This document shows, one piece after another, positions 12,897-24,803 of a stretch of 25,978 nt of DNA. Source of the DNA: Candidatus Micrarchaeota archaeon (GTDB lineage: Archaea > Micrarchaeota > Micrarchaeia > Anstonellales > Anstonellaceae). The position numbers and the translations under genes were made by a program. The stretch covers positions 1-25,978 of the forward strand of contig JAPLWZ010000016.1 in the NCBI GenBank assembly GCA_026396335.1, written 5' to 3'. The notes below the pieces were generated by a model that ran no database searches, was not told the origin of the DNA, and saw only the letters and a list, made by a program, of their open reading frames with translations. The stretch's first letter is position 1. Each line of letters begins with the position of its first letter.

Positions 12897-12909
12897 GTGC
12901 AGGGAGGGA
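12897..12909. repeat. att site: 13-bp duplicate of the tRNA-Leu 3' end (GTGCAGGGAGGGA)
   Basis: Identical to 18211-18223. On the - strand it is followed by TAATTCTTTTTC, the expected position of the original tRNA terminator. Confidence 0.8.
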
Positions 12910-13012
12910 AACCCAAGGATGATGCTTGGGTCTGACTGGATTTTGAGAGCTAGTCTACTCACCGGCACGGCACTTTGGAGAGCTTTTTAATCTTTATATG
13001 GTTTAAAGCGGC

Positions 13013-15973
13013 ATGAAGTCCAACGACGAGATAAAAACCCTTATTCTAGAGCTTCACTCCAAGCTAAACAGGCTTCCCAACAAGGATTCCGAGACTGAAA
13101 AAAAGGCGGAAGAATACCTTAGCCATCTTTTCGGAGCGCTCGGCTGGGACTGGCTCAGCGCGGAGGTAATACCGCAAAAAAGAGTACGGAGCGGCGGGAA
13201 GACTCGGCGGGTTGATTACGCCCTTAAGCGAACTGGTAGGCTCAAGCCGGATTTTTACATAGAAGTAAAGAAATTCTCCGAGGACGTTTACAATCCAGAG
13301 CACACAAGGCAGGCGCTGGAATACGGCAAGAACAGCGGCATCCGCTGGGTGGTACTGACAAATTTCACTGCCTGGCGGGTCTTCAACTCTGACTATTTCG
13401 AACACCCAAACGACGCAGAACTATTCTCTGGCTTCAATCTTTTGGACGCGGCAGTAGACCCGGAGAAGTTCAACTGGCTCATGCTTTTCTCAAGGGAGCA
13501 GGGCGGGCCAGCGCTTGACGAATACGCCAAAAAGCACAAGAAATGGCGGGAAAGCGAAAGCGTGGAGGAGCTGCTCTCGGAGCAGTTCATCAACACAAGG
13601 AAGAGCCTTGCAAATGCCATAAGGGAGCAGAACCGGGAACTCTTTGACCCTGAGCCAACGGATGAGGACGTTTCCGTCGACTCCTGCGTGCAGCATATTC
13701 TTGACCGCCTGATTTTCTGCCGCATGCTTGAGGACAACGGGATAGGCGACGGGTTCCGCATGGAGCAGTCATATGAGGAGTGGAAGAACGACAAGCGGGT
13801 GCAGTTCTACCGCGAGCATCTCGCCGAGTTCTGGATTAAGAAGATGCGCAAGAGGTATGACAGCACAATATTCGACAGCCACAGAATAGACGGCCTGACG
13901 ATCAAGAACGAGGATTTCGTCCCTATCTTCGAGTCATTCTACGTAAACCCAAAGACAAAGCTCCGCTACCGTTTCGAGGCAATCCCGACAGACGTTCTTG
14001 GGCATGCATATGAAAACTACCTTTCCTACAAGCTTAAGCAGACTGCCAAAAGGACGGGGCTTGAAAAGGAAATATACAAACGCAAGCAGAGCGGCATCTA
14101 TTACACGCCTGAGTTCCTTGTGGACCATCTGGTAAGGGCGACCCTCGGCGAAAAGCTGAAAGCCTGCAAAACGCCCTCCGACGTGCTGAAACTGCGCGTG
14201 ATTGACCCTGCCTGCGGCTCAGGCACCTTCCTTGTGCGCGCATTCGAGGAATTCAAAAGCTGGTATCTTACTCATGAGAAAAACGGGGGCGGCGAGCAGG
14301 CAAAGCTTGACATAGAGAATGACTCCGGGCTGACCACCTTCCTTGACCGCGTGCTTGAAAGCTGCATACACGGCATTGACCTTGACCTCCACGCGGTGCG
14401 GCTGACGAGATTGAACCTATTTTTACGGGCAATCGACACGCCCAACCAATTGCCTCGCCTAAAAATACTGCACAAGAATTCCTTAGTATGGGACGACGAC
14501 CTGCCGCTGCCGTTCAAAATGGAGCGCGACTTCCCGCTCGTTGCAGAGCAGGGCGGCTTTGATGTTGTGATAGGCAACCCGCCATGGGAGAAGTGGAAGC
14601 CAGACTCGCAGGAATTCTTCGAGGAATTCCACGAGGGCTTCAAGAGCCTGCCTACTAAAGAGGCAAAGAAAGTCATAGATGAACTTCTGAAAACCAGAAT
14701 AGGCATCAAGAAGAAATGGGAAGACAAGCTGCGCGAATATGAAACATACTCAGAACTTTATCGCCGCAATTACCAGTTTCAGTCTGCTGAAGCAGCAGGG
14801 AGACAAGTTTCTGGCGACCTTGACCTTTACAAAGTATTTACAGAAAGGGCATACCAACTCCTCAAGCCCGGCGGCTCCGCAGGGCTCGTAATCCCAAGTG
14901 GCATCTACACGGACTTGGGAGCAAAGGGCTTGCGGACAATGCTGTTCGACCACTGCCAGATAAAGGAACTTTACTCGTTTGAAAACCGAAAGTTCGTGTT
15001 TCAGGACATTGACCAGCGCTACAAATTTGTGCTTCTGAAATTCGAGAAAGGTGGCAAGACAAAATCCTTCCCCTGCGCCTTCTTCCTTTACAGCGACGAG
15101 GACTTGAAGAAAGCGATTGAAGCGCCAACTGTTCTTGAGGTGGAGTTCATCAGGCGCTCTTCACCAACCTCATGGAGCGTGCTTGAAATCAAGAGCGAAA
15201 AAGATAAGGGGATAGTAGAAAAACTCCTCAAAAATCCGAAAATAGGTGATGACAGAGATAGTTCTTGGTGCATAAAAATCCAGAGTGCATTTCATATGAC
15301 CAGTGACAGCCACCTTTTCCGCGAAGGAAAGCTTGGCGGAATCCCTCTGCTTGAAGGGAAGAACATAGAACATTTCACACATCAGTGGAAAGACAATCCG
15401 ACTCCACAATACACTATGGATGAGAAAGATGTTTATGCAAACCTCAAGACTGAGAATGTTTATCACAAGGGCTACTGGATGGCGTATCGTCTTATTGCAA
15501 GCTCTACGAATTATCGTACTTTCATTTCGACGATTGTTCCGCCCGGTTATGTTTGTGGGCATTCAATTGCTATTGTAAGGATGGAAAATTTGAAGGAACT
15601 TTGCTACCTTTGTGGGGTGATGAATAGCTTTGTGATTGACTATTTTATGCGTCAAAAGGTTAGTACAAACGTAACAATGTTCAACTTCCTTGAAACCCCT
15701 ATCCCGCGCATCTCATCCGGCAAGCTGTTTGACGAAATCGTAAAGAAGACCGCGCAGCTTGTGGCAATCACTCCTGAGTTCGACCAGCTCAAGAAGGAAA
15801 TTGGCATCTCCGCAGGCCTGAAAGATGAGAACGACAGGCTGCTGGCACGCGCACAGCTTGACGTGGCTGTTGCCAAGCTCTACGGCATCACAAAGGAGGA
15901 GCTTGCCTACATTTTGGAGAAGTTCCCGAAGGTGGATGCGAAACAGAAGGAGCTTGTGCTGAGGGAATATTGA
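13013..15973 (+). CDS. Fused type IIG/IIL restriction-modification enzyme (PD-(D/E)xK nuclease + N6-adenine methyltransferase + target recognition domain)
   Basis: N-terminal RVDYAL...FYIEVKK and WVVLTNF; GIYYTPEFLV; motif I VIDPACGSGTFL; motif IV VVIGNPPW; C-terminal TRD-like region ending ARAQLDVAVAKLYGIT.EEL. Confidence 0.9.
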   Translation: MKSNDEIKTLILELHSKLNRLPNKDSETEKKAEEYLSHLFGALGWDWLSAEVIPQKRVRSGGKTRRVDYALKRTGRLKPDFYIEVKKFSEDVYNPEHTRQALEYGKNSGIRWVVLTNFTAWRVFNSDYFEHPNDAELFSGFNLLDAAVDPEKFNWLMLFSREQGGPALDEYAKKHKKWRESESVEELLSEQFINTRKSLANAIREQNRELFDPEPTDEDVSVDSCVQHILDRLIFCRMLEDNGIGDGFRMEQSYEEWKNDKRVQFYREHLAEFWIKKMRKRYDSTIFDSHRIDGLTIKNEDFVPIFESFYVNPKTKLRYRFEAIPTDVLGHAYENYLSYKLKQTAKRTGLEKEIYKRKQSGIYYTPEFLVDHLVRATLGEKLKACKTPSDVLKLRVIDPACGSGTFLVRAFEEFKSWYLTHEKNGGGEQAKLDIENDSGLTTFLDRVLESCIHGIDLDLHAVRLTRLNLFLRAIDTPNQLPRLKILHKNSLVWDDDLPLPFKMERDFPLVAEQGGFDVVIGNPPWEKWKPDSQEFFEEFHEGFKSLPTKEAKKVIDELLKTRIGIKKKWEDKLREYETYSELYRRNYQFQSAEAAGRQVSGDLDLYKVFTERAYQLLKPGGSAGLVIPSGIYTDLGAKGLRTMLFDHCQIKELYSFENRKFVFQDIDQRYKFVLLKFEKGGKTKSFPCAFFLYSDEDLKKAIEAPTVLEVEFIRRSSPTSWSVLEIKSEKDKGIVEKLLKNPKIGDDRDSSWCIKIQSAFHMTSDSHLFREGKLGGIPLLEGKNIEHFTHQWKDNPTPQYTMDEKDVYANLKTENVYHKGYWMAYRLIASSTNYRTFISTIVPPGYVCGHSIAIVRMENLKELCYLCGVMNSFVIDYFMRQKVSTNVTMFNFLETPIPRISSGKLFDEIVKKTAQLVAITPEFDQLKKEIGISAGLKDENDRLLARAQLDVAVAKLYGITKEELAYILEKFPKVDAKQKELVLREY

Positions 15974-15990
15974 AATTTGAGAAGGCGAGT

Positions 15991-16332
15991 ATGATGTCTG
16001 ATCTTTGGATCACTTTCGTCCCAGATATTTACCTAAAGATGCTTCCAGCGCTATCACTAGTCGCTATAGGGTGGATGGTTGAAAAGCAAGTTGTTGGCCG
16101 AGTGACTACTTTTGCCAACGGTCTCGCAATCAATCTACACGTCTTACTTTTAACCAGCCCGCCAATGTGGTTTATCTGGTATGCAAATATAGGTTTTATT
16201 ATGGGGATTATTGGTATCTTTGCATATGGAAGCAGAACAAGCCTAAGTGGAACACTTGGCAAAATATACTACACGTTAAGCTGGGCGTATTGTTCCATCT
16301 TTGTTGGTTTCTTAATACTCGTCATTCATTAA
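15991..16332 (+). CDS. Small hypothetical integral membrane protein (~113 aa, about 4 TM helices)
   Basis: Four hydrophobic stretches; 17 nt downstream of and co-oriented with the R-M gene; ~35-43% GC in hand-counted lines. Confidence 0.65.
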   Translation: MMSDLWITFVPDIYLKMLPALSLVAIGWMVEKQVVGRVTTFANGLAINLHVLLLTSPPMWFIWYANIGFIMGIIGIFAYGSRTSLSGTLGKIYYTLSWAYCSIFVGFLILVIH

Positions 16333-16387
16333 CAACTGAGTATGGACACTTTATGAAAATAGTTTACCCCTAATTTTTCTCGCATTT

Positions 16388-16700
16388 TAAGCGGTGTTCA
16401 CCTGCCTTAAATCTATTTGGTTACATCATTTCGCTTACTCTCGCGCTTAATTTTTCCTGTAACATGCAAAACCTTGACAGTCGAAGAAAGATGCGCTTAT
16501 TCTGCGCTTAAAAGACGGTTGTGGCGTCCAAATGCGCTTAATTCTCAAGCTTTGCTCCCAGATAATATTTGCCTGCGCTCTCGCTTATTTTCGATTGAGC
16601 GTAAAGTTGAGCGTAATTTCTGGCTGCGCAAAAATTTCAGAGAGCTTAGCAAAAATTGAGCGTAAAACTGAGCGTAAATGCATGTTCTGGCTGCCAGAAC
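16388..16700. repeat. Array of 11 TRAGCG/CGCTYA short repeats in ordered pairs
   Basis: TAAGCG at 16388; CGCTTA at 16432, 16444, 16494, 16505, 16535, 16582; TGAGCGTAA at 16596, 16608, 16657, 16669. Confidence 0.85.
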
Positions 16701-16742
16701 AGCCTACTTCGTTGTTTTGTGTTTCTGAGAGTATTGTCTGTT

Positions 16743-16887
16743 ATTGCGCAGCTCCGCAGGTCATGTATACTGGAGCCGAAAGCTGCGCAAAGAACGGAGT
16801 TTGGATATGCAGTTCCAAGCAAGAATCAACGTTTGAGCTGCGGCAAGAAGTTTATATACGATTGCGCAGCTCCGCCTAGCTGCGCAA
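16743..16887. repeat. Two inverted-repeat pairs with identical 10-bp arms (TTGCGCAGCT / AGCTGCGCAA)
   Basis: Arms at 16744-16753/16781-16790 (27-nt spacer) and 16862-16871/16878-16887 (6-nt spacer); 15-bp direct repeat ATTGCGCAGCTCCGC at 16743 and 16861. Confidence 0.85.
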
Positions 16888-16890
16888 CTC

Positions 16891-16906
16891 AAAAAAAGAA
16901 AAGAAA
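16891..16906 (-). terminator. Oligo-T terminator of the integrase gene
   Basis: TTTCTTTTCTTTTTTT on - immediately after the integrase stop. Confidence 0.55.
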
Positions 16907-18103
16907 TTACTCCAGCAATTCCTTGTCCAGCCCCATTTCCAGCATTTTCTTCACGAGCAATGCCTTCACTTCTGGGTCCTGAATCAAAACGTTCATCATG
17001 CCGTTCGCCGCCTTGTTGGGGTCGTTGAGCACAAGCCGCTCATCGAAGGGGTTGCCGCACTTGCCACAGAAGGACTGTGTTGGGGAATTTCTCTCCTTGC
17101 AGCGGGAGCATATTTTGATGTCGAGTTTTGGCTCTTTTTCTATTGGCTTGTCCTTCATGGAATACATTTGAAGAAGTGTGGAATCAACGTCCCTGCCGGA
17201 CAAATGAACGTAAGTCGCAGCCATATCGCTGCCCTGCGTCCATCCAAAATATTCCTTCATTTGTGCTTCGGTCAATTTTGAAGCTAACGAGGTTGCTCGG
17301 CTGTGCCTGAACAGGTGAGGATAAATTCTCTTTTTTATGCCGCTTACCTTGCTTGCTCGCCTCAACATGGCGAGTATTGAGGGGTAGGAGCAGGGCACAG
17401 GTTTGTAGCGGGCAAGCCTCGCAGGCCATAAAGGGGCGTCAGGGTTGTCTTTGTCCGGGTGTTCCTGAAGCCATTGCCCCAACACCTGGGCACTTGCAAT
17501 TATCCTTACTCTCCTGCTGCCTGTCTTGCCATTGACAATGAGCACAACTCCGTAATTGTCGAACTGGACGTTCCTGAGCTTGAGATAGAGCAATTCACCT
17601 ATCCTGCATCCTGACTCGTATAATGCCAAAATAAGCGCCTTGTCGCGTGGATTTGTGGTGGAGTTGGCGAGCTTCTGCGTCTCCTCAATTGTCAGCAATT
17701 CCTCAGGCAGCTTGTGCGCCTTGTTGCCAATCTTTGGCTTGAGCCATTTGATTACTTTTGGAAAATCCTCGTCCTTGCCAAGAAGCCACTTGTAGAACAT
17801 TTTGAGGACGACTTTGAAGTCGTAACGGGTGTATTCCGAATAATTTTTGGCGTCAATTTCAGTAACCAGCCGGATTATGTCGGTCTTTGTCGCAGTCGAG
17901 AAATCCTTGTTGAGCCACTGCGCCAGAAAGCGCATGCAATACATGCATTTTACGACGCGAAGTTTGCCCGAGCCTTTCGCAAGTCTCATCCGTGCGAAGT
18001 TCTCAATCTGCTTTTTTGTTTTCGCTGCAAGGGATGAAGCCTTCAGTATGGCTATCGCTTTCTCGAAGTCGGTTTGCGATTTGTACATCACGTATTCGTT
18101 CAT
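16907..18103 (-). CDS. Tyrosine recombinase/integrase with C-terminal zinc ribbon
   Basis: Catalytic residues GCRIGEL (R), KTG (K), HLFRHSR (HxxR), GW, YVH (Y); CSRC...FCGKCG ribbon. Start at MNEYV (18103) is supported by a TATA box 24-31 nt upstream. Confidence 0.93.
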   Translation of the reverse strand: MNEYVMYKSQTDFEKAIAILKASSLAAKTKKQIENFARMRLAKGSGKLRVVKCMYCMRFLAQWLNKDFSTATKTDIIRLVTEIDAKNYSEYTRYDFKVVLKMFYKWLLGKDEDFPKVIKWLKPKIGNKAHKLPEELLTIEETQKLANSTTNPRDKALILALYESGCRIGELLYLKLRNVQFDNYGVVLIVNGKTGSRRVRIIASAQVLGQWLQEHPDKDNPDAPLWPARLARYKPVPCSYPSILAMLRRASKVSGIKKRIYPHLFRHSRATSLASKLTEAQMKEYFGWTQGSDMAATYVHLSGRDVDSTLLQMYSMKDKPIEKEPKLDIKICSRCKERNSPTQSFCGKCGNPFDERLVLNDPNKAANGMMNVLIQDPEVKALLVKKMLEMGLDKELLE

Positions 18104-18126
18104 GATCCCTGTCCTGCTTGACCTTC

Positions 18127-18176
18127 TATATATAGCTTGACGAGACACGCGACGAGGTGCGACTCAGGTGCGTGTC
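18127..18176 (-). promoter_or_regulatory. Integrase promoter (TATATATA, 18127-18134) with upstream inverted and direct repeats
   Basis: TATA at canonical distance; GACACGC (18144-18150)/GCGTGTC (18170-18176) inverted pair enclosing two AGGTGCG copies (18155, 18166). Confidence 0.5.
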
Positions 18177-18210
18177 GAGGTCCAGCGGTAGGACTAGTGC
18201 ATCATACAAG

Positions 18211-18223
18211 GTGCAGGGAGGGA
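18211..18223. repeat. att site overlapping the tRNA-Leu 3' end
   Basis: GTGCAGGGAGGGA, identical to 12897-12909. Confidence 0.8.
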
Positions 18224-18333
18224 GATTCGAACTCCCGAAGACCTAAGTCACCAGATTGCTTACTGCGCAATTGCAATTAAGCAAGAGCGGGATCTTGAGT
18301 CTGGCGCATTAAACCGGGCTCTGCCATCCCTGC
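18212..18333 (-). tRNA. tRNA-Leu(CAA) with a 37-nt intron at position 37/38; CCA not fully encoded
   Basis: GCAGGGA/TCCCTGC acceptor stem, GCA/TGC D stem, CCAGA/TCTGG anticodon stem with loop CT-CAA-G|A, long variable arm GAC-TTAG-GTC, GGGAG-TTCGAAT-CTCCC T arm, discriminator A; 85 nt mature. Confidence 0.93.
18257..18293 (-). other. tRNA intron (37 nt)
   Basis: Removing it restores the 7-nt anticodon loop CUCAAGA; the boundary is ambiguous by 1 nt from sequence alone. Confidence 0.85.
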
Positions 18334-18362
18334 ATGAGAAATGAGAAGCAGAAGGAATATTA

Positions 18363-18407
18363 GGATGGCAGGTATTTCACGAAGTGAAATTTGACTGCCA
18401 TCCCTGC
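18363..18407. repeat. Hairpin containing a 13-bp duplicate of the tRNA 5' end and a 9-nt antisense copy
   Basis: 18395-18407 CTGCCATCCCTGC equals 18321-18333; GGATGGCAG (18363-18371) is its inverted partner; inner stem ATTTCAC-GAA-GTGAAAT (18374-18390). Confidence 0.85.
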
Positions 18408-18452
18408 GTAAAACTAGGAGAAGGATCTGCGTTTAATGGTGGCGGAAATACA

Positions 18453-19019
18453 CTACTTTTTCACTATTTTCAAGAAGTTCGCGTATATTTCGCTTCCGTG
18501 CTCGCTGTACTCCACTTCAGGATGGAACAGGCAGCCGTAAACCGGGCGCGAGAGGGACTTGAATGCGTGGTTGGTGACATCCTTCGAGTGCGCGAGCACC
18601 TTGAAGCCGGGCGTGTCCACCACTTCGTCGTTGTGCGACGCCCATACGCTGAATTTGTCAGGCAGGCCTTCGAAAAGCTCGTCATGGTCGTCTATTATGA
18701 GCTCAACTTTTCCGTATTCGGGGCCTTTTGCAGGCTGCGCCTTGCCGCCGAAGTGCAAGCCAATGAACTGCTGCCCTGCGCAGATGCCCATTATTGGTCC
18801 CTGGAATTTTTCCAGGAACTTGCGCGAGTTTCCCGTCTGCTTTGTGTCGCCCAATCCAATCCTTATCGCGCCGCCTGAGAAGATGAGTGCGTCTGCTGAG
18901 AGAATGTTCTTTACAGGCGTAGTGACCGGAATTATTTGCGACTCCACGTCCAAGTACTTGAGAGTGCGGTGTATGCGGTGCGTCCACTGCGAGCCGAAAT
19001 CAACGATAAGGACTTTCAT
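18453..19019 (-). CDS. guaAA: GMP synthase, glutamine amidotransferase subunit A
   Basis: IVDFGSQWTHRI, GICAGQQ (catalytic Cys), SHNDEV, FHPEV (His-Glu); adjacent to subunit B. Confidence 0.93.
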   Translation of the reverse strand: MKVLIVDFGSQWTHRIHRTLKYLDVESQIIPVTTPVKNILSADALIFSGGAIRIGLGDTKQTGNSRKFLEKFQGPIMGICAGQQFIGLHFGGKAQPAKGPEYGKVELIIDDHDELFEGLPDKFSVWASHNDEVVDTPGFKVLAHSKDVTNHAFKSLSRPVYGCLFHPEVEYSEHGSEIYANFLKIVKK

Positions 19020-22837: not shown

Positions 22838-23878
22838 TCAGGCTATTTCCTCAATCAATTTCACCAGGTAGTTCGCGGTCCTTTCTATGTCATCAACAGA
22901 GCACACTGCCACGTTTGAGTGGATGTAGCGGGTCGGGACGCAGATTGCGATTGAAGGGATGCCTCCGCGCTCGCCGTAAACTGATGCAGCGTCTGTTGCG
23001 CCACCCTCTATTACTTCAAGCTGAGTTGGAATTTTGTGCTTCTTGGAAACGCTTATGCATGACTTTGTGAGCTGCGAGTCCGCGAAATTGCCGCGGCCCC
23101 CCGCCTCAACAATGCAGATCGCCGGCCCCTTGTTCAATTGTATGAGCGATTCGTCCTCGCTCATTTCAGGGTGGTCGCCAGCAATTGATGTGTCTACTGC
23201 TATGAATGATGCGGGTTCGAGGTTGTATGCTGCAATCATCGCGCCTTTTCCGAATGTGGATACTTCCTCTTGAGTGGTGCCGACAAGCACGACATTTCGG
23301 TTCTTCACGCGCTTTGCAATGTCAAGGAGCACGTAACAGCCAACGCGGTTGTCAAGCGCCTTTCCAGTAACCAATTTTCCATTCAGGATTTTTGTGGAAA
23401 GGTCAAATGCTATCGGGTCGCCGATTTTCACGCCCATCTTTTCCGCGTCCTTCTTGTTTTTCGCGCCTATGTCTATGAAGAGGGATTTGTTGTCTATTGC
23501 CATCTTCATGTCCTCTGCCTTTTGCATGTGGATTGGCTTGTTGCCAATTACGCCGTAAATCCTGCCTTTTTCCGTTTCGATGACCACGCGCTGGTTCACA
23601 AGCACCCTGTTGTCTATGCCGCCCACCTTTACGAAGCGCAGGAAGCCCTTGTCGTTTACAAACTTCACGAGCATGCCGATTTCGTCCATGTGCGCGCCTA
23701 GCATCATTGGCTTTTTCTTGCAGCCAGGTGCGCGGGCTATCACATTCCCGAACCTGTCGATTTCTGTTTTGTAGCCCGATTTCTTGAGTTCGGCTGCCAT
23801 GAGTTTCGCTATTTCTTCCTCATGCCCCGGAACGCCGAATGTTTCTGTCAGTTTGCAAAGTAAGTCCATGTCCACCAT
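22838..23878 (-). CDS. M42 family metallo-aminopeptidase (TET-like)
   Basis: GVPGHE, AHMDEIG, GGID, KALDNRVG, QEEV, AVDT, GGATDA, PTRYIHS; GGGGTGA 5 nt before ATG 23878. Confidence 0.93.
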   Translation of the reverse strand: MVDMDLLCKLTETFGVPGHEEEIAKLMAAELKKSGYKTEIDRFGNVIARAPGCKKKPMMLGAHMDEIGMLVKFVNDKGFLRFVKVGGIDNRVLVNQRVVIETEKGRIYGVIGNKPIHMQKAEDMKMAIDNKSLFIDIGAKNKKDAEKMGVKIGDPIAFDLSTKILNGKLVTGKALDNRVGCYVLLDIAKRVKNRNVVLVGTTQEEVSTFGKGAMIAAYNLEPASFIAVDTSIAGDHPEMSEDESLIQLNKGPAICIVEAGGRGNFADSQLTKSCISVSKKHKIPTQLEVIEGGATDAASVYGERGGIPSIAICVPTRYIHSNVAVCSVDDIERTANYLVKLIEEIA

Positions 23879-23933
23879 ATGATTCACCCCTGAATAGTAA
23901 GTAGGGAAACTCGCTTAAGGGTTAAAAACGTGC

Positions 23934-24803
23934 CTAAACGCTTATCTTCAATCCGTCAACTGCAATAAGAGTGTTGGGAAAAATCTTTTTCGCCTCATCA
24001 AGAAGGGGCGTTGTGTCCCTGTACCTGCCTGATATGTGCGTGAGGAGGAGTTTGCCTGCGCCTGCTTTTTTTGCCACTGCTGCTGCCTGCGCTGCGGTTG
24101 AGTGGTGCGCCTCTTTTGCTTCCTCTTTCTTGTCCTCTGCGAATGTGGATTCGTGAATTAGGAGATCTGCGCCTTTTGCCGCTTTTGCAACTGATGCAGA
24201 GGGCGCCGTGTCGCCAGTGTAAATGATTTTCTTTCCTGCCTGTTTGTAAGTGATGCTTTTCAGGAGAATTTTTTTCTTCCCGATTTTAATCTCGCCCTTT
24301 TCCTGTATTTCGCGGAACATCTGCCCCTTCAAGCCCGCCGCATGCGCTTTTTCCTCGTGGAAGCGCAAGCGTTCCTTCTCCTTAAGTGAGTAGCCGAAGC
24401 AATTCTTGTCGTGCTCCGCAATAAATGCAGAGACAGAAAACTCACCAAAGTCCGCGACTGCGCCTGCCTCTTCGAGTTCGACTATTTCCAAGAAGTCTTT
24501 TTTGTTGAATATTGCACGGCTTCCTTTGGGGCCGTAGAGAACGAGTTTTTCAGTGCGCCCGTTGAGCGCCATTGTTTCTATTAGCCCGATTGCCCCGAGG
24601 AAATGGTCCATGTGGAGATGAGTGATGAATATTGCGTTTACCTTCATGTAAGAGAGCCCGAAGCGCATCATCTGCCGCTGTGTGCCCTCGCCGCAGTCAA
24701 GAAGAAGCACGTTGCCGTTGTGGCGCACTGCTATCCCCGCGAGGTTGCGCTCCGCTGTTGGCGTGCCTGCAGATGTGCCGAGCATGGTTACTTCGAATGA
24801 CAT
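23934..24803 (-). CDS. rnz: Ribonuclease Z
   Basis: LGTSAGTPT, DCGEGTQ, THLHMDH (HxHxDH), flexible arm region, YTGDT, LIHEST, THISGRY. Confidence 0.95.
   Translation of the reverse strand: MSFEVTMLGTSAGTPTAERNLAGIAVRHNGNVLLLDCGEGTQRQMMRFGLSYMKVNAIFITHLHMDHFLGAIGLIETMALNGRTEKLVLYGPKGSRAIFNKKDFLEIVELEEAGAVADFGEFSVSAFIAEHDKNCFGYSLKEKERLRFHEEKAHAAGLKGQMFREIQEKGEIKIGKKKILLKSITYKQAGKKIIYTGDTAPSASVAKAAKGADLLIHESTFAEDKKEEAKEAHHSTAAQAAAVAKKAGAGKLLLTHISGRYRDTTPLLDEAKKIFPNTLIAVDGLKISV

Follow-up and report, generated by a model that had tools for sequence, protein, structure and literature searches.

A hairpin unit at the start of an archaeal tRNA-Leu gene: probably a cassette copied from one tRNA gene to another, not a GMP-synthase-linked switch

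Described systems and the unit before tRNA-Leu(CAA)

The TLRs of Escherichia coli are short non-coding sequences that lie beside tRNA genes, carry a copy of the end of the host gene and sometimes stand in tandem; their function is largely unknown (PMC8144298). In Caldiarchaeum subterraneum, a 27-nt 5' fragment of tRNA-Thr and upstream DNA precede the intact tRNA (PMC3293823), a layout that the authors link to intron gain (PMC3293823, PMC4033280). REP/CGTC repeats and MITEs are non-coding imperfect palindromes of 20-40 bp, the CGTC class without a known transposase (PMC3733652), and Dada transposons target tRNA genes, some of them at an A-box/D-stem hexamer that matches tRNA nt 8-13 (PMC3706591). 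Finally, the non-canonical bulge-helix-bulge (BHB) introns of the Micrarchaeota ARMAN-2 and of Thermoproteales are hairpin inserts closed by the complement of exon bases, with similar sequences on unrelated tRNAs (PMC3239211, PMC4033280), and they occur in the same lineage as the locus described here.

We analysed a stretch of 25,978 nt (hereafter the window) from a Candidatus Micrarchaeota archaeon (assembly GCA_026396335.1, contig JAPLWZ010000016.1). On its minus strand, positions 18407-18363 begin with a copy of nt 1-13 of tRNA-Leu(CAA) (the decoy), continue with a hairpin insert of 23 nt and end in an antisense arm complementary to tRNA nt 5-13 (Table 1). The original prediction, made from the letters of the window, had described this order of decoy, hairpin, antisense arm, 29 nt and tRNA start, and had placed it 46 nt downstream of guaAA; both the layout and the distance are borne out, the guaAA stop ending at 18453 and the decoy beginning at the 46th base. 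When the 119 nt between the genes were shuffled 20,000 times by dinucleotides, the 13-nt direct copy never arose and an antisense match of at least 9 nt arose 183 times. The 45-nt hairpin has a z of -6.7 and fits a short imperfect palindrome; read on the opposite strand, the loop of the insert is a C-GAA-G DNA mini-hairpin. An assembly artefact was ruled out, as the unit also stands on independent metagenome contigs of a sister lineage. Positions 18445-18438 may hold an older antisense relic, a weak candidate that the sister lineage lacks.

Table 1. Features of the window around the hairpin unit
Feature	Position	Strand	Remark
guaAA, GMP synthase subunit A	18453..19019	-	NCBIfam above cut-off; neighbour, outside unit
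TATA-like 8-mer at -32 from decoy	18432..18439	-	3.6 bits, not significant alone
Decoy arm	18395..18407	-	identical to tRNA nt 1-13 at 18333-18321
Hairpin insert, 23 nt	18372..18394	-	fold; 22/23 identical in sister lineage
Insert 4-nt loop	18394-18391	-	
Insert perfect 7-bp stem, 3-nt closing loop	18390-18384/18380-18374	-	
Insert 2-nt loop	18373-18372	-	
Antisense arm, complement of tRNA nt 5-13	18363..18371	-	pairs with decoy at P=0.99 (predicted)
TATA-like 8-mer at -30 from tRNA	18363-18356	-	2.0 bits, not significant alone
Spacer, 29 nt	18334..18362	-	probable promoter region of tRNA
tRNA-Leu(CAA) gene	18210..18333	-	Rfam tRNA E=4.7e-8
Attachment repeat, 13 bp, tRNA 3' end	18211..18223	-	second copy 12897-12909; separate integrase element
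Tyrosine recombinase	16907-18148		within integrase element
Eco57I-type methylase-domain gene	13013-15973		within integrase element

In its behaviour the unit resembles a non-autonomous palindromic insert aimed at tRNA genes, but on defining features it cannot be placed among TLRs, REP/MITE sequences, integrase elements or Dada. TLRs lie downstream of the gene and repeat 18-19 bp of its 3' end (PMC8144298), whereas the unit precedes the gene, copies its 5' end and has a fixed hairpin and an antisense arm besides, with mirror modules at 3' ends found in its relatives. The Caldiarchaeum insert is about 1.8 kb long and encodes a recombinase (PMC3293823), whereas the unit is a 23-nt hairpin with antisense arm and spacer, holds no gene and occurs on four tRNA types. 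Like an integrase-type element it has a 13-nt direct repeat of a tRNA end, and in relatives upstream DNA is duplicated too; between the two repeats lie 61 non-coding bases, with no recombinase gene or cargo. In contrast to REP/MITE sequences, it bears neither a GTAG nor a CGTC tag in alignment, has no cognate transposase among the most frequent families of its neighbours, is present in one to three copies per genome rather than many, is restricted to tRNA ends and has outer arms made of host tRNA sequence. It also differs from the BHB introns, since the window unit has no bulge-helix-bulge and the tRNA is restored by duplication rather than by splicing. Dada, for its part, is eukaryotic, relies on a DDE transposase, leaves 6-7 bp target duplications and disrupts the gene (PMC3706591). 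No description of a tRNA-start/antisense hairpin layout was found in the literature searched, which lay largely outside the subscription journals.

The tRNA-Leu(CAA) gene is whole, with its parts in normal order, and has a canonical 37-nt intron at 37/38 (18293-18257); ARAGORN run without its intron mode misses the gene. The intron is 35/37 identical in the sister lineage. Its central helix has a mismatch at the wobble base (C34 opposite A), as though the intron stemmed from a UAA isoacceptor. At the tRNA 3' end sits an integrase element of 5.3 kb (12897-18223); the original prediction that both tRNA ends are duplicated by 13 bp is right in that both repeats are real, but the 3' repeat belongs to this separate element. 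Directly behind the integrase, positions 16742-16871 hold a repeat common to two places on another contig of the genome (C120). Upstream, on the same strand as guaAB-guaAA, are genes for a ribonuclease Z (23934-24803) and an M42-family aminopeptidase (22838-23887).

Related units, their targets and their turnover

About 60 distinct units stand before Leu, Ser, Cys and His tRNA genes within this order of Micrarchaeota, which are tiny symbiotic archaea. A strict pattern matched in 27 of the 176 genomes of the order and its reversed control in none; two matches were chance hits in coding sequence, one ran off a contig end, and the others lay directly before tRNA-Leu genes of several anticodons, in 25 of the 176 genomes. 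A pattern blind to nt 1-7 gave 20 genome matches, all 20 directly before a tRNA gene. These searches require the pairing that is later counted, and they were run on related genomes. Outside the order, the unit was found in one of the approximately 260 genomes of the class that were searched. On viral contigs, the strict pattern had no match and a loose pattern had eight, none of them followed by a tRNA start; hairpin matches away from tRNAs look like chance, mostly in coding sequence.

The Leu, Ser and Cys tRNA genes share the motif TGGCRG at nt 8-13, and the insert starts directly after it. The source genome (75% complete) contains a single unit, and four of its other tRNAs have TGGCRG at nt 8-13 without one; no decoy-type copy was found at any other tRNA in it. 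The original prediction had pointed to other tRNAs of this genome and to the orthologous locus as places where such duplications with antisense arms might recur, and it is at the latter, in relatives and in the sister lineage, that they do. The design is constant, with a copy of the host tRNA start, a 4-nt loop, a perfect stem, a 2-nt loop and the complement of the copy. Variants have a second hairpin within the antisense arm, a shorter spacer or tandem doubles. In 40 of 42 parsed units the decoy equals the start of its own tRNA, and the pair at nt 12 is G-C in 24 units, A-U in nine and unpaired in none, although the search pattern partly demands pairing. Upstream DNA is duplicated with the decoy to a varying length, from 0 to about 47 nt, and in two genomes (G014 and G020) the promoter has been duplicated along with the 13-mer. 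At one locus (L382 in G022), a Cys decoy with the usual Cys start precedes a tRNA-Cys with a changed start, and at another (L352 in G111) the antisense arm matches a different Leu paralogue; the arms at both loci thus lag behind the host tRNA.

In four genomes, the inserts carried by Leu paralogues share 88-97% identity, with two further pairs at 38%, whereas identity between genomes has a median of 42% and a 95th percentile of 64%. In one genome (G144), a single insert occurs on two genes that differ in their first seven bases, and both arms fit each gene. The insert of the window shares 71% identity with that of a tRNA-Ser unit in a congener (G008). Leu and His inserts within one genome are merely 29-59% alike, so the likeness among paralogues may be due to gene conversion. 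Turnover is also suggested among close relatives: a clade of six near-identical species, well supported in an RpoB tree, shows full, truncated and absent states of the unit at tRNA-Leu(CAA), and tandem double units occur in three genomes (G014, G054 and G020). At another locus (L362:56-263), two tandem units are present, and TA-flanked palindromes that resemble miniature inverted-repeat insertions are nested in the first spacer.

Mirror modules, composed of a loop, the complement of the tRNA 3' end, a hairpin and a direct copy of the 3' end, occur at tRNA 3' ends in both orientations (L297, L302, L303, L305 in G014, L322 in G054, L208 in G108); their hosts are Asn, His, Trp, Gln, Pro-type and Ser tRNAs. 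The genes next to the units are varied housekeeping genes, with no transposase in the 25 most frequent families of 104 neighbouring ORFs. A search for an enzyme, which covered these neighbours and the genome's one GIY-YIG match, gave no candidate. The GIY-YIG match resembles the N-terminus of an ordinary UvrC-type repair protein.

A copied cassette or a selected leader

We give roughly even chances to the reading that a short hairpin cassette without genes has been copied into tRNA gene starts at the DNA level, the unit being one such copy. Copying from one tRNA gene to another is probably what we see here, and not a switch that serves the GMP-synthase gene. The observations behind this reading are the design of the unit, its confinement to tRNA genes, its presence on several tRNA types, the near-identical inserts on paralogues and the patchiness among close species. 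Of the origins proposed in the original prediction, the footprint of an element that targets the tRNA 5' end comes closest to this evidence, though a large integrase element that decayed to a scar does not fit: we find a conserved, recurring, gene-less cassette of which no ORF-bearing or long form was found.

A rough scheme can be proposed for the copied cassette. It would enter after the D-stem motif TGGCRG (nt 8-13), or in tRNA-His after nt 7-8, with the antisense arm templated from the target, and the gene start and a variable amount of upstream DNA would be re-copied behind it, such that an intact tRNA survives. Copying might be carried out by a putative trans-acting enzyme with a folded DNA single strand as its substrate, or might come about by recombination via the shared arms, and direct-repeat recombination could then double or delete units. 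The RNA form would be a self-sealed hairpin, either removed by RNase P together with the leader or bypassed by transcription from a promoter in the spacer, and the decoy may have been retained since a free antisense arm would cause the tRNA to misfold. We think it unlikely that a dedicated, enzyme-driven single-stranded DNA micro-element is at work, one that would recognise the D-stem, build target-matched arms and also be the source of the non-canonical introns of DPANN archaea; if an enzyme does build target-matched arms, this would be a new insertion chemistry.

The alternative that survives best, which we would still call unlikely, is a selected RNA leader, perhaps a domesticated cassette, that tunes how the pre-tRNA folds, is processed at its 5' end or is transcribed. 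Here a protein bound to the 4x2 loop would shift the antisense arm onto the tRNA, and this would hold for several tRNAs with no link to GMP; it would amount to a new layer of tRNA control. In its favour, the unit is 44/45 identical (insert 22/23) in the sister lineage, which is represented by two metagenome contigs, whereas fourfold-degenerate sites of guaAA differ at 37 of 74 (50%); in the flanks, 27/45 upstream bases and 22/29 spacer bases match. Such conservation fits an insert that is recognised by something as well as one that was recently re-copied, so far as the sequences tell. The inner stem has compensatory changes at six of seven pairs, and the geometry of the 4x2 internal loop is conserved across unit families. 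Template-switch repair of palindromes yields compensatory changes without selection.

Whether a transcript starts at the decoy or at the guaAA stop, the antisense arm is paired with the decoy, which is transcribed before it, at P = 0.99 in the predicted ensemble (99:1). With the decoy removed in silico, the antisense arm is predicted to trap the tRNA (P 0.88-0.95), and the original claim that this arm can pair with either the decoy or the tRNA start is thus real in principle. An alternative fold, whose acceptor strand comes from the decoy, is predicted to lie 3.8 kcal/mol above the best one, and among single changes in decoy nt 5-13, one half flip the predicted fold; both points also speak for a selected leader. 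Equilibrium folding puts no constraint on the insert. Comparison by eye with hammerhead, K-turn and C-loop structures gave no fit.

The position of promoters bears on the same question. The 29-nt spacer is probably the promoter region of the tRNA; its length is fixed at 29-30 nt in relatives, and unit-free orthologues have strong TATA boxes at -30/-31, in the same register as the proximal 8-mer of the window. The distal 8-mer may possibly be a promoter that starts at the decoy, and an AT-rich box in its register also occurs at L363 (the sister lineage), at L362 and in G013. In many relatives the sole good TATA box lies upstream of the decoy, which therefore places the unit in the leader, removable by RNase P, as a selected leader would have it. 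An explanation by leaderless tRNAs in a genome without RNase P was rejected, as the source genome contains a candidate RNase P RNA (E 1.3e-19, below the family cut-off). Several relatives keep the antisense arm alone, 38-39 nt upstream of the tRNA, and at six of seven antisense-only or truncated loci the arm is predicted to trap a co-transcribed tRNA, suggesting that the spacer there is a working promoter. According to the original prediction, its reading would fall if the tRNA had its own start and the hairpin were absent from orthologous loci; that the tRNA has a promoter of its own is plausible, but orthologous loci do carry the hairpin. At three tRNA-Leu(CAA) loci (L002, L004 and L011), the proline-rich tail of the upstream gene enters the antisense arm and stops in the spacer (Pro-Pro-Ser-stop), possibly through a microhomology deletion of the decoy.

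Against a selected leader stand the absence or truncation of the unit in near-identical species and its lack at the four other TGGCRG tRNAs of the genome. The loops favour the template strand: of 60 units, 15 have a G-N(1,2)-A hairpin loop on the template strand and none has one on the RNA strand. G-U pairs are also scarce, at 1.8% in units vs 6.8% in tRNA introns. Like the other figures on copying and turnover, these derive from related genomes and serve as description, not as independent tests. GNA and GNNA loops form unusually stable DNA mini-hairpins (PMC13037366). The mirror modules at 3' ends, in both orientations, do not suit a leader either, and an Rfam search returned the tRNA and chance matches only, with no RNA family matched by the unit.

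tRNA introns and the weaker alternatives

The gain of introns at odd positions in archaeal tRNA genes is an open question, for which the unit offers a concrete, testable intermediate, as several tRNA types repeatedly show the cassette at nt 13, only two bases away from the site of 15/16 introns. It is rather doubtful, in our estimate, that the unit is a by-product of the process that makes non-canonical BHB introns in this lineage, an idea that overlaps with the copied cassette. A hairpin at nt 13-15 would become a 15/16 intron if followed by a 4-nt complement of nt 10-13; with a longer complement and a re-copied gene start, it would become a unit instead. True D-loop 15/16 introns, with a 4-bp helix on nt 10-13, are indeed present on unit-bearing genes (G253 L070, G137 L186), and the nested hairpin of the G137 intron is found again in G053 and G130 units and in a G014 3' module, making a shared origin of units and introns plausible. 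Furthermore, the source genome encodes a splicing endonuclease, and intron transposition between tRNA genes has been reported for Thermoproteales (PMC4033280). Taking the defining features of BHB introns and split tRNAs from PMC3239211 and PMC4033280, however, we find neither a strict nor a relaxed bulge-helix-bulge in the window unit, and formal matches to the strict motif in no more than 3 of 42 units, where their registers differ; nor was a mechanism found for writing RNA events back to DNA. Lacking this motif, the unit is not a splice substrate or a relic of a split tRNA, and an endonuclease processing site was rejected for the same reason.

Passive mutation, by fold-back template switching at the tRNA start with no element or enzyme, appears improbable. 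It would account for the direct-inverted-direct layout and the variable length of duplicated upstream DNA, and for the failure to find an enzyme; the insert, however, is not host sequence, its ends and 4x2 loop are common to families and tRNA types, and the break point is fixed after nt 13. Also very improbable is an attachment scar left at the tRNA 5' end by a large integrase element that has since decayed. The 5'-fragment layout of the Caldiarchaeum tRNA-Thr (PMC3293823, PMC4033280) is a precedent for it, and the promoter and 13-mer duplicated in G014 and G020 speak for it as well. All units are short and of one structured design, an attachment scar leaves the antisense arm unexplained, and among 20 further decoy-like matches, in stretches of up to about 3 kb, none reached a tRNA-Leu start beyond 132 nt.

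The position of guaAA varies. Among 71 loci tested, true guaAA lies upstream on the same strand only in the window and the sister lineage, and at most it is absent nearby; in two unit-bearing genomes (G019 and G014) it lies downstream on the opposite strand, and at three other loci the upstream amidotransferases are paralogues, 38-39% identical and not true guaAA. A switch specific to the GMP operon, or a relic of a split or permuted tRNA, both put forward in the original prediction, can hardly be credited even when taken together: guaAA does end 45 nt upstream on the same strand in the window and in L363, with no terminator-like site found between gene and unit by a scan with a sigma-70 promoter/terminator model that is uninformative for an archaeon, but its position is not conserved at unit-bearing loci, the hairpin is 99% self-paired in the predicted ensemble, the tRNA is intact and the fragment ends in no splice motif, which split tRNAs need (PMC4033280).

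In practical terms, the unit accounts for partial tRNA matches and for variation in leader length in the annotation of DPANN genomes. Other inserts complicate tRNA genes in this group. The tRNA sets of G014 and G054 (L297-L323) include very many tRNAs interrupted at D-loop 15/16, at anticodon stem 30/31 and in the T-loop, often by long nested hairpins, and the Rfam model finds only 16 and 11 tRNAs in them. In the source genome (G000), a second small repeat family lies inside or just after tRNA genes on contigs C46, C84, C105, C140 and C179; it consists of a G-run arm, a C-run arm and then a further hairpin, and in relatives it takes the form of anticodon or T-loop inserts. Two multi-copy insertion-sequence-like elements with subterminal palindromes break the G000 assembly, the first at the ends of contigs C10, C148, C152, C154 and C167 and the second at the ends of C7, C35, C40, C41, C130, C174 and C177. 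The first of them carries an 11-nt mini-hairpin loop that is also found between the antisense arm and the tRNA in relatives.
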